Below, piece after piece: positions 9,001 to 12,000 of a stretch of DNA of 53,278 nucleotides. Location of the stretch: contig JAGWGW010000007.1 in assembly GCA_028867135.1 (NCBI GenBank), positions 1-53,278 of the forward strand, given 5' to 3'. The position numbers were made by a program. Source of the DNA: Candidatus Micrarchaeota archaeon. GTDB lineage: Archaea; Micrarchaeota; Micrarchaeia; Micrarchaeales; CABMGC01. Position 1 is the first letter of the stretch; every line of letters starts with the position of its first letter.

Positions 9001-12000
9001 GGCACTCTCCTTCCCAGTAGGATCCTGAATTTTTTGACCTTGCCGCTCTTGTCGCGTATGCTCTTCGTTAGATAGTAGTATATATGCCCCCCATGGCTCT
9101 GCTTCTCTATAAATGCCATATTATGACTACAATCCCAAAGTATTTATATTTTGTGGTCATAATGACTACAAGTGGCAAAAACTGGTAGCTTGTAGTCCTA
9201 ACACTTATTTATCGCGCCTGAGAACTCACGATTCCAAATACTGTGCAGGGGGAGAGATTTGAACTCTCGAAGGCGCTAAGCCACAAGATCTTAAGTCTCG
9301 CGCATTTTCTGTGGCACAATGCCATTCCAGGCTCTGCAACCCCTGCATTACTTAGAATGAGAAGCTCAGTATTATAAGAATACTTTCATGCGTACATCGA
9401 AGGTCCTGCAGATTCCGCAGCCTTGTCGTAGTGCTCGGGGCTCTCTCTCATCTTCTTCACTATGTCCTTTATCTTCGTCTGCACTATCTTTGCTTCTTTC
9501 TCAAGGTCCTTGAGATCTATGTTCGTGTCTATTATCTTGTTGAGCCCTTTTATCGCAGTCTCCGCGTAAGTCGGGTCCATTATCGTGGGGTTTACCTCTA
9601 CAAGTATGTCTGCTGCAGGTATGTTGAACTGCTTCGCGTTCGTGAGCAGCAGCGCGCTCACGCCTGCGACAACTCCTTCCTGAATCTGCTTTATCCCGTT
9701 CTTGCCAGCCTTCTTTATTATGCTCTCGTCAAGGCTGGTTATGAACAGCTGCTCGCTCGGCTTCTGCGAGGGCATGCCGCTTATCGAGATTATCCTGCTG
9801 ATCTTGCTCTTCCTGACGAACGCGAGCAGCTCCATCGCAAGCTGGTATATGGCATGGGCGGGTATGACGAACTCGGACATGACCAGGGCAAGCTTGTACC
9901 TGTCGTCCTTGTATATCCTTGCCGGAAACGTTGGGTTGCCGAAATGTATCGACGCAATAGGCGGGAACATGTCGCTCTCTATGTATCCTATGTACTCCAT
10001 CTTGAGCTTCTCTATCAGGTAGCTGCCCGCCATGGGCCCGACAAGCCCGACACCAGGGAATGCCTCTATGAGCGTGTATCCCGAGAGGTTTGTGTCCTTG
10101 AAAAGCTTTACTCCTATCATGATTTAGTATTGCAAGAAGTCTTTAAAAGGATTTATATGGAAAATCGGCTGTTCTTTGGCGCTCTAGTTGTATTTTAATC
10201 TCGGAGCTACGACGATATGTATAAAAAGGCTTATGTCGTCTATATATCGTGGTTAAAATGGCCGAAAGAGTAAGCAGGGAAAAAGTGGATAGGGAGGACG
10301 GCTACCTGTACTTCCTGGGTAAAGACGGCTTCGTATGGAGGACGCCTATGAGAAACAACCCAAGAGGGAGAAAGGCAAAGGTGGGGAGCGAAAAGATAAG
10401 GAGAGAAGATGGCTACCTATACTTTGTTGACTCAAACGGGTACGCTGCAAGGACAAAGATGAACAGGAAGGGCAGAGTTGCAAGGAGAAGGAGATAAATC
10501 CTTCATTCTTTTTTTTCTTTTCCTTTTTTTATTTCAGTTCTGTTTTCACGTCTTTACGCAGGAGTCTCAGCAGCCAGCCTGTAGCCGCACGAGCTGCAGA
10601 ACCTTGAGCCAGCGCTGTTCGGGGAGCCGCACTGCGGACAGTTTGTCGCCGCATCCTTATCGTTTTTGACTTCTTTAGAATCATCCTTGCCTGCGCTTCC
10701 CCCGTCTCTGCTCTTGTGATGCGAGATTCCCTTGATGTCCTCCACCCCTATTCCGCTGTCCTTCTTCTGCGCATTTTTATCGATCTTCTTCCTCTTCCCA
10801 TCTGTGGTGTAAGCGTACCGCTCGGTATGCTGTCCGGTGCTGTCAGCGCCAGCGGCATTATCGCCATGCACGGTGCTTCCTTCGACAGCGTAGTCCTTGC
10901 TCTTGTAGCCTCTTTCACTTGCATCCCTTTCATCTGGCACCTCATCATCCTTATCGTAGCCTGCGCCATCCACAGCCCTCTTGCTGTCATCCACATGCCC
11001 CTCATGCTTCTCTATCACATGTATCTCCTTTATCATCCGCACGTTCGCTGCGGGCAGCAGGAGCCCTATCGCTACGAAGATAACCCCTATGGCGAACGCG
11101 ATGAGCTCCAGAGGCGTAAATGTGCCCAGTATTAGGTTGTTGCATGCGCCGGTGGCAAAGCCCAGCACGCTGTCAATCGGCGAGCAGGAGCCTCCGCCTA
11201 TGCTGCCAAGATAGTAGGTGGCAAGGTACGCGCCGAATCCTATGATGAGCCCCAAGCCTATGAAATACGGTCTCAATTATACACCATCGCTATTGCATGT
11301 GTAAGCCAATCTATAAAATAATATTCTTATACAAGCGCATGCAAGAAAGGCGTAAATACCTGTCCGCCCAATCTCCTATTGAGAAGGTAAAATGTGGCCT
11401 TGATCAGGATACCTTCCTGTGCGACGCACCTTCCGTCCTGCCACACAACTATGCGGCCCGTTAGTCTGATACCTTCCAATGCTGGATGTGCACCTTCCAT
11501 CAGGCCACGCCGCTCGCTCAGGACCGTTTACCCAAACCAAGTCGTCTTATCTCTGCTTCTTCTCGGTCTGCAGCTTTATGTACATCGCTATCGCGGCTAC
11601 GACAAACCAGAAGAGCACGTCAAGTATGAAGCTCGCATACTCTATCCTCCAAGGATTGTACTGGGGCGCGACGACCATCCTCACGATCCAGCTGATCGGC
11701 ATGCCGTACCATGCGGCTCCAACTAGCAGCGCAGGCGTGCTAGGTATCAGTGCCGTTATGAAGGCCATGAAAAGGCCTACGAAAAGCGCCGGAACAAGGA
11801 AACCATACCTATCCATATAACCCATCTATCTATCAGCAGCATTCTTTAAAATCCTTCCACATCAGCACACCGTGTGCACGAACGAGAGGTTGAAGGTCAG
11901 GCCCTCGGCCTCGGTCGTGTTTGCGTTGTTTATCACGAAGTAGTTCGGGCCCTCTATCGCAGGGATGACGAAGTCCTTGCCGGATATCGGGCTGAAGCTG

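Follow-up and report, generated by a model that had tools for sequence, protein, structure and literature searches.

A small two-repeat basic protein of Micrarchaeota and several bacterial phyla: a candidate autoregulating DNA-binding protein distinct from Cc1

Introduction

Fis represses its own promoter as well as gyrA and gyrB, and HupB, Hc1/Hc2 and AlgP carry histone H1-like tails. In archaea, CC1 is reported to bind single- and double-stranded DNA alike (PMC4200833, PMC2275093, PMC3189178). TTX_0308 of Thermoproteus tenax is named a CC1 gene (Siebers 2011), its peptides are printed in the supplement of Botting 2010, and the protein G4RKF6 was the seed of the Cc1 jackhmmer search of Hocher 2022. 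The latter study also describes WP_019177984.1/AGI86273.1 of Methanomassiliicoccales, a candidate nucleoid-associated protein (NAP) of 74 aa that is basic, abundant and, by prediction, novel in fold (Hocher 2022, PMC7613761). A DPANN gyrase is recorded in most Micrarchaeota, Woesearchaeota and Pacearchaeota (Villain 2022, PMC9348778).

The window analysed here is a stretch of 53,278 nucleotides from a Candidatus Micrarchaeota archaeon (GCA_028867135.1, contig JAGWGW010000007.1, positions 1 to 53,278). An initial annotation had read a 79-aa protein encoded in it as a major nucleoid protein related to Cc1. Here we examine this protein, its family, its promoter and the proposed kinship.

Results

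The 79-aa protein and its locus

The protein (Table 1) has a pI of 10.9, counts 16 R and 7 K among its residues and contains two copies of the repeat (V/I)x(K/R)ExG(Y/F/W)LY(F/Y)x(D/G)KxGxVxRxxM, spanning about residues 2-39 and 40-72 and followed by a basic tail (73-79); its gene is single copy in the genome. Identity to 25 Micrarchaeales orthologues is 70-80% (mean 74.5%), against 60% for the less conserved PAC2 protein of the same loci. The 79-aa protein scores above the cut-off of no Pfam family and matches nothing in NCBIfam, a sequence search with the family found no match among PDB chains, archaeal ribosomes included, and the sole match in PHROGs is phrog_9154 (E 4e-5), whose function is not known. 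The AlphaFold2 model, built with 38 homologues, has a pLDDT of 89.3 and consists of two beta-hairpins with short extra strands; neither PDB nor BFVD yielded a Foldseek hit at E<=1e-3, and the best match of a wide aligner had a Z of 2.4, results that do not by themselves prove a new fold. The initial description of an Arg/Lys-rich protein with two GYLYF repeats, 70-80% identical across the order, outside Pfam and NCBIfam, confidently modelled (pLDDT 88) and with no PDB match above Z 2.5, thus stands in every one of these points.

Family members vary around this core. K/R-rich tails of at least 20 aa are present in 26 of 188 members, and some members bear K/A/T-rich, H1-like tails of up to 90 aa. 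Some family proteins have four or more repeats, and fusions join the two-repeat domain to membrane-anchored proteins, to zinc ribbons, to an ASCH domain and to an M48 peptidase (P0174, P0176, P0196, P0251, P0121, P0122, P0257, P0162). Single-repeat forms of 43-50 aa are encoded on the viral contigs L120, L122 and L123, and would need to dimerise to build the two-repeat unit.

Because it has its own TATA box and T-tract and lies between the divergent PAC2 gene and a convergent downstream gene, the 79-aa gene is a single-gene unit; on this basis, and with fewer than 290 aa, the protein has the size and single-gene operon by which Hocher 2022 selected NAPs. The T-tract follows the stop codon in 28 of 29 Micrarchaeales loci. 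The intergenic region common to the gene and PAC2 measures 137 nt, and PAC2 lies divergently upstream in 27 of the 30 best-scoring Micrarchaeales loci (26 by clustering plus the window itself) and beside the gene in none of 80 loci from other phyla. The adjacency to PAC2 noted in the initial annotation is thus sound within Micrarchaeales and fails outside them, and a functional link was rejected in favour of divergent local synteny confined to Micrarchaeales. When neighbours were clustered and read by eye, no cluster spanned both Micrarchaeales and other phyla. Elsewhere in the window, a 528-aa protein (4356-5942, minus strand) has two weak Lrp/AsnC-type helix-turn-helix and ligand-binding matches, and its basic N-terminal region resembles that of a Fic protein at 8205-9119.

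Table 1. Features of the 79-aa protein locus and of two other genes of the same genome (G000); positions without prefix refer to the window.
Feature	Position	Strand	Basis or remark
Gene of the 79-aa basic two-repeat (GYLYF) protein	10258..10497	+	ORF translation, repeats, model
TATA box (TATAAAAA)	10220..10227	+	38 nt before ATG
CGACG, promoter motif copy, predicted binding site	10210..10214		ends 5 nt before TATA box; conserved in relatives
TCTCG, degenerate second half-site, 2 mismatches	10199..10203		spacer of 6 nt to the CGACG copy downstream, giving an 11-bp period
Weak motif copies, one mismatch each	10234..10241		between TATA box and start codon; read from sequence
T-rich terminator-like tract	10506..10535	+	directly after stop codon; sequence, relatives
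PAC2-family proteasome assembly chaperone gene, divergent	9386..10120	-	Pfam; lineage synteny only
Convergent neighbour, hydrophobic N-terminus and C-terminal zinc ribbon	10554..11276	-	sequence, Pfam
DUF5679 zinc-ribbon protein, 46 aa	G000:C17:14628-14768 (L001:1492-1632)	+	own genome
gyrB	G000:C31:121790-123706	-	promoter CGTCG about 16 nt before TATA box; conserved in relatives

Distribution of the family

With a Micrarchaeota profile the gene was found in 258 of 300 Micrarchaeota genomes (152/175 of the near-complete ones). Ten families without any match account for 35 of the 42 misses, and a broader profile still gave no match in 20 negative Micrarchaeota genomes, 15 of them from all-negative families. 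Presence in nearly all Micrarchaeota, as first annotated, is qualified by these ten families; to call the gene the core of a DPANN phylum was too strong in view of them and also too narrow, since the family is present in 99/101 of an Elusimicrobiota sample. The corresponding figures are 196/251 in Nanoarchaeota, 48/101 in Fidelibacterota and 37/151 in Bdellovibrionota, all for samples that were centred on family-bearing loci, took their phylum names from the record titles of these loci and include the positive centre in each count. The unpublished genomes G196, G029, G551 and G552 are among the phylum tallies (Micrarchaeota, Nanoarchaeota, DUF5679, gyrB), and the loci L025, L385 and L396 also come from these; no conclusion depends on them.

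In the 50% cluster library 742 family representatives were counted at E<=1e-3, against the 715 members given initially. The best 80 of 575 confirmed stretches of a genome scan belong, by title, to Woesearchaeota, Marinimicrobia/Fidelibacterota, Elusimicrobia, Omnitrophota, Myxococcota, Bdellovibrionota and others; members also occur in Thermoplasmata, and viral contigs carry both two-repeat and single-repeat forms. The family is not DPANN-specific: it is found in small archaea, several bacterial phyla and some viruses. A tree of 63 rows and 73 columns, whose bootstrap had not settled, set the Micrarchaeota apart (100/100) and mixed Woesearchaeota with bacteria. The loci L034, L041 and similar, titled 'uncultured Methanosarcinales archaeon', have gene neighbours in common with Woesearchaeota loci, and one record of that title groups with Woesearchaeota in the tree; these titles may be wrong.

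As initially annotated, two histones and Alba are encoded in the same genome. HU was detected in 101/101 bacteria sampled, and the idea that the family replaces HU was rejected on that count. On the idea of an obligate histone partner, PF00808, a model that can miss bacterial histones, matched in 0/101 Elusimicrobiota and in 1/101 genomes of the phylum of G302.

A conserved motif at the promoters of the family

The motif CGACG was first seen beside the TATA box in archaeal upstream regions and, unexpectedly, beside TTGACA in bacteria. The pentamer was fixed first, and 80 new upstream regions were then collected, from which four duplicates were dropped; it was scored as CGACG/CGTCG within 150 nt upstream, with promoter-bearing neighbours (intergenic gaps of at least 100 nt) as one control and 60 dinucleotide shuffles as a second. 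CGWCG preceded 26/29 and 48/78 family genes of the discovery sets, against 3/21 and 16/170 of the neighbour controls. The test sets gave 15/20 against 6/62 in other Micrarchaeota (two of the 20 being from the window's order), 12/16 against 0/28 in Fidelibacterota (a phylum shared with many discovery loci) and 15/26 against 5/21 in Bdellovibrionota (p 0.02, near-duplicates included), each count lying above the maximum of the 60 shuffles. The motif thus held in three of four test sets, the loci being related; the exception is Elusimicrobiota, where the gene is most universal and where 5/20 against 9/53 is no excess over controls. In some Elusimicrobiota (L091, L257, L258, L262, L266, L268) the gene follows closely behind an ORF with an excisionase-type helix-turn-helix-like end, as judged by eye; these regions lack the motif, suggesting that the promoter may lie further upstream.

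The middle base of the site is W in 174 and S in 35 cases in 178 de-duplicated regions (one record titled bacterial being counted with archaea), compared with 49 W and 70 S in 355 controls. The motif is found in both orientations. Its flanks are symmetric, and those of archaea and bacteria resemble each other (T at -3, Y at -1, R at +5 and A at +7); the full site is the pseudo-palindrome YCGWCGR, placed next to the TATA box or -35 element of family genes. The distance from the end of the site is 4 or 13-15 nt to the TATA box in archaea and 8-10 nt to the -35 element in bacteria. Where a second site is present, a spacer of six bases is the one met most often (archaea 22/95, bacteria 11/83, controls 4/355), and the dyad with this spacer is present in 23/29 Micrarchaeales loci. 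In the genome of the window CGWCG occurs about once per 490 bp, with a genome-wide observed/expected ratio of 0.98, and precedes 6 of 159 TATA-like boxes, the same as CGSCG; a general promoter element or BRE was rejected on this basis.

Occurrence of the motif at gyrB

CGWCG is present in 64 of the 562 upstream regions of the genome. From 32 listed sites, gyrB, a TRAM gene and sepF were chosen post hoc, and the first two were tested. Upstream of gyrB the motif was found in 20/28 members of this genome's family (shuffle mean 1.8, max 5); these sites keep a constant distance to the TATA box that follows and often occur as pairs. The sister family gave 3/15, which is not above its shuffles (max 4), 5 of 20 regions having no usable start; other orders gave 7/20 (shuffle max 4) and Nanoarchaeota 3/9 (shuffle max 2), where most of the sites lie downstream of the TATA box. 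The TRAM gene was rejected as a second target (6/28, shuffle max 6). Upstream of the single-TRAM gene (L370-L399) most relatives have a conserved leader before the start codon, roughly AGTAGTAAAGCG...GCTAATTCTACAGAGGAAA, which may be the structured 5' UTR of a cold-shock-type gene. The sepF promoter (G000:C5:15105-15470, plus strand) has a CGACG site.

Of the same 300 Micrarchaeota genomes, 234 have gyrB. The 79-aa protein's gene is present in all 14 gyrB-bearing families, six families have it without gyrB, and ten have neither. We regard this nesting as a lead, because kin are not independent, and the family-level p=0.0003 is an overstatement, since the ten negative families may be one or two clades. 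Most bacteria have gyrase without the gene of the 79-aa protein. That this protein regulates gyrase is a tentative proposal, to which we give somewhat less than an even chance.

Comparison with Cc1

One TTX_0308 peptide used as a pattern retrieved 118 metagenome loci, including ORFs of 55-61 aa, and the product of one of these ORFs (P0414) is identical to UniRef G4RKF6_THETK, that is, authentic T. tenax Cc1, for which there is no Pfam family. BLASTP gave no alignment between G4RKF6 and the 79-aa protein, hhalign gave a probability of 0.1%, and, with wider profile sets (111 Cc1, 121 DUF5679 and 388 family sequences), the Cc1 profile scored at most 1.3 bits on the 388 family sequences, no better than on reversed decoys. 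The likeness asserted in the initial annotation was thus not borne out, and kinship with Cc1 was rejected for want of sequence or profile similarity to G4RKF6. The layouts of the models differ as well: that of Cc1 is one five-stranded domain, that of the 79-aa protein two hairpin repeats, and, in this comparison by layout and rankings, Cren7 is the top match for Cc1 (Z 4.6, rmsd 2.9, 49 aligned) and not for the 79-aa protein. Cren7 takes this place for the T. tenax Cc1 model even though Cc1 and Cren7 have been described as sharing no sequence relationship.

The initial annotation had also allowed that the published Cc1 survey may already include such hits. Table S1 of Hocher 2022 has one CC1 row, of 47 aa, among its 38 Micrarchaeota rows (35 'Micrarchae' and 3 Mancarchaeum), and in these rows the jackhmmer search from G4RKF6 does not recover the 79-aa family. 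The size of that match fits another protein of the genome, the 46-aa DUF5679 protein, a better Cc1 candidate than the 79-aa protein. Its alignment with Cc1 runs from end to end, at 27% and short of significance, and the comparison of Cc1 with DUF5679, intended as a positive control, was weak (45 columns, 27%, E 0.11), so their kinship is only suggested. The DUF5679 gene is present in 31/100 Micrarchaeota, and an atlas search with DUF5679 gave only leads below 0.9. The record is hereby corrected: it is another gene of these genomes that encodes the protein of Cc1 size.

Discussion

The occurrence of the motif at the family's promoters in both domains and at some gyrase promoters suggests that the protein binds DNA there, regulates itself and perhaps acts on supercoiling; we consider it probable that the 79-aa protein is a sequence-preferring, autoregulating DNA-binding protein. 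It is proposed that double-stranded DNA would be bound with a preference for YCGWCGR, the two beta-hairpin repeats forming a pseudo-dimer in which each repeat would read one CG half, as the match between the internal twofold of the protein and that of the site implies. Sites 11 bp apart could be occupied next to each other on the same face of the helix, and sites adjoining the TATA box or the -35 element would modulate transcription and so control the protein's own promoter; in some DPANN lineages the gyrase B promoter may also be acted on. Conserved K/R residues and, in some members, the H1-like tails would add non-specific binding, by which the protein could double as a nucleoid protein. Such a role, beside histones and Alba or HU, is plausible, and that the protein is also an abundant chromatin protein seems to us only a little short of an even proposition. 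A DNA-binding, nucleoid-type role combined with an unsolved fold, as initially annotated, is plausible, and both the promoter motif and the H1-like tails speak in its favour, while the fusions of the domain to membrane and zinc-ribbon proteins, which have no obvious need for DNA binding, count against it.

The family might alternatively be a non-specific nucleoid coat, with a different regulator at CGWCG controlling both its gene and gyrB. The very basic surface, the H1-like tails and the 70-80% conservation would suit a coat protein, and sequence specificity is deduced from promoters only; a separate regulator would, however, need to accompany the gene through archaea and three or more bacterial phyla, yet Micrarchaeales and the other phyla have no neighbour cluster in common, and the twofold of the site is already fitted by the protein's own two repeats, so that we consider a mere coat unlikely. 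An RNA- or ribosome-binding protein, such as an accessory ribosomal or hibernation factor, would also be small, basic, single-copy and strongly conserved, with an RGR-type tail, and an ASCH-domain fusion occurs in one member. The motif, though, lies mostly upstream of the TATA box or -35 element and takes either orientation, an indication of DNA, the cross-domain mixing in the tree is easier to understand for a DNA binder, and ribosomal chains of the PDB gave no match; such a factor is accordingly quite improbable.

Two further readings are more remote still. The hairpins could belong to a ligand-binding repeat like the choline- or glucan-binding repeats, with the motif incidental: two members match Pfam choline-binding repeats weakly (E 0.04-0.05), and there are weak matches to glucansucrase chains (E 0.4-0.9). 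Pfam scores for choline- or glucan-binding repeats do not exceed the cut-off and the matches are far below it, the stand-alone form has no signal peptide, and motif and tails would be left without explanation, all of which makes this very unlikely. Least credible is a Cc1-type chromatin protein. Both proteins are small, basic and beta-rich (PMC4200833), yet neither sequence nor profile connects them, the published Cc1 search misses the family in the Micrarchaeota rows of its table, a Cren7-like single domain differs from two hairpin repeats, and the genome has a separate DUF5679 protein of the size of the published match.

The preferred reading, a sequence-preferring autoregulator, has a more ambitious extension, in which the family would be a new DNA-binding fold of DPANN, several bacterial phyla and viruses, with a CGWCG operator read together with TBP/TFB and sigma-70, autoregulating, forming a supercoiling module with gyrase and maybe a precondition for DPANN keeping a bacterial gyrase; taken as a whole we think this doubtful. 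We found no study of the family in the literature covered, outside which lie most subscription papers and bioRxiv supplements. A core protein without annotation in Micrarchaeota, Nanoarchaeota and Elusimicrobiota is now singled out, and together with its 11-bp site it offers a concrete and cheaply testable case. It would be rare, if true, for a regulator to keep one operator in bacterial as well as archaeal promoters. The link to the gyrB promoter, together with the nested distribution, is relevant to the question of how archaea adjusted to a gyrase they had acquired (Villain 2022, PMC9348778).

Compared with known systems, the family would work like a small autoregulated nucleoid-associated regulator, but one of no known family and no matched fold. 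T. tenax CC1 (G4RKF6) is likewise small, basic, beta-rich and archaeal; it is one domain of 55-57 aa modelled like Cren7, whereas the 79-aa protein has two repeats and a predicted double-stranded DNA motif. For the Methanomassiliicoccales candidate WP_019177984.1, also small and basic and with a predicted novel fold, the homologues named (Sphingomonadales, Rhodobacterales, Alteromonadales, Flavobacteriales, Methanomicrobiales) differ from the taxa of the present family. The restriction endonuclease Hpy99I recognises the same pentamer CGWCG (PMC2699513); it is a zinc-binding HNH-type nuclease, unlike the family, with no sequence match in our PDB searches, and the common site is probably a coincidence. 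HupB, Hc1/Hc2 and AlgP are resembled by those family members with K/A/T-rich tails, whereas the tail of the 79-aa protein is short and Arg-rich and the core domain unrelated. With Fis, IHF and HU, which are small, basic and autoregulated, the family has in common a single-gene unit with sites at its own and the gyrase promoter and coexistence with other chromatin proteins, replacing neither HU nor histones and Alba; it differs from them in sequence, in predicted fold and in its presence in both domains.
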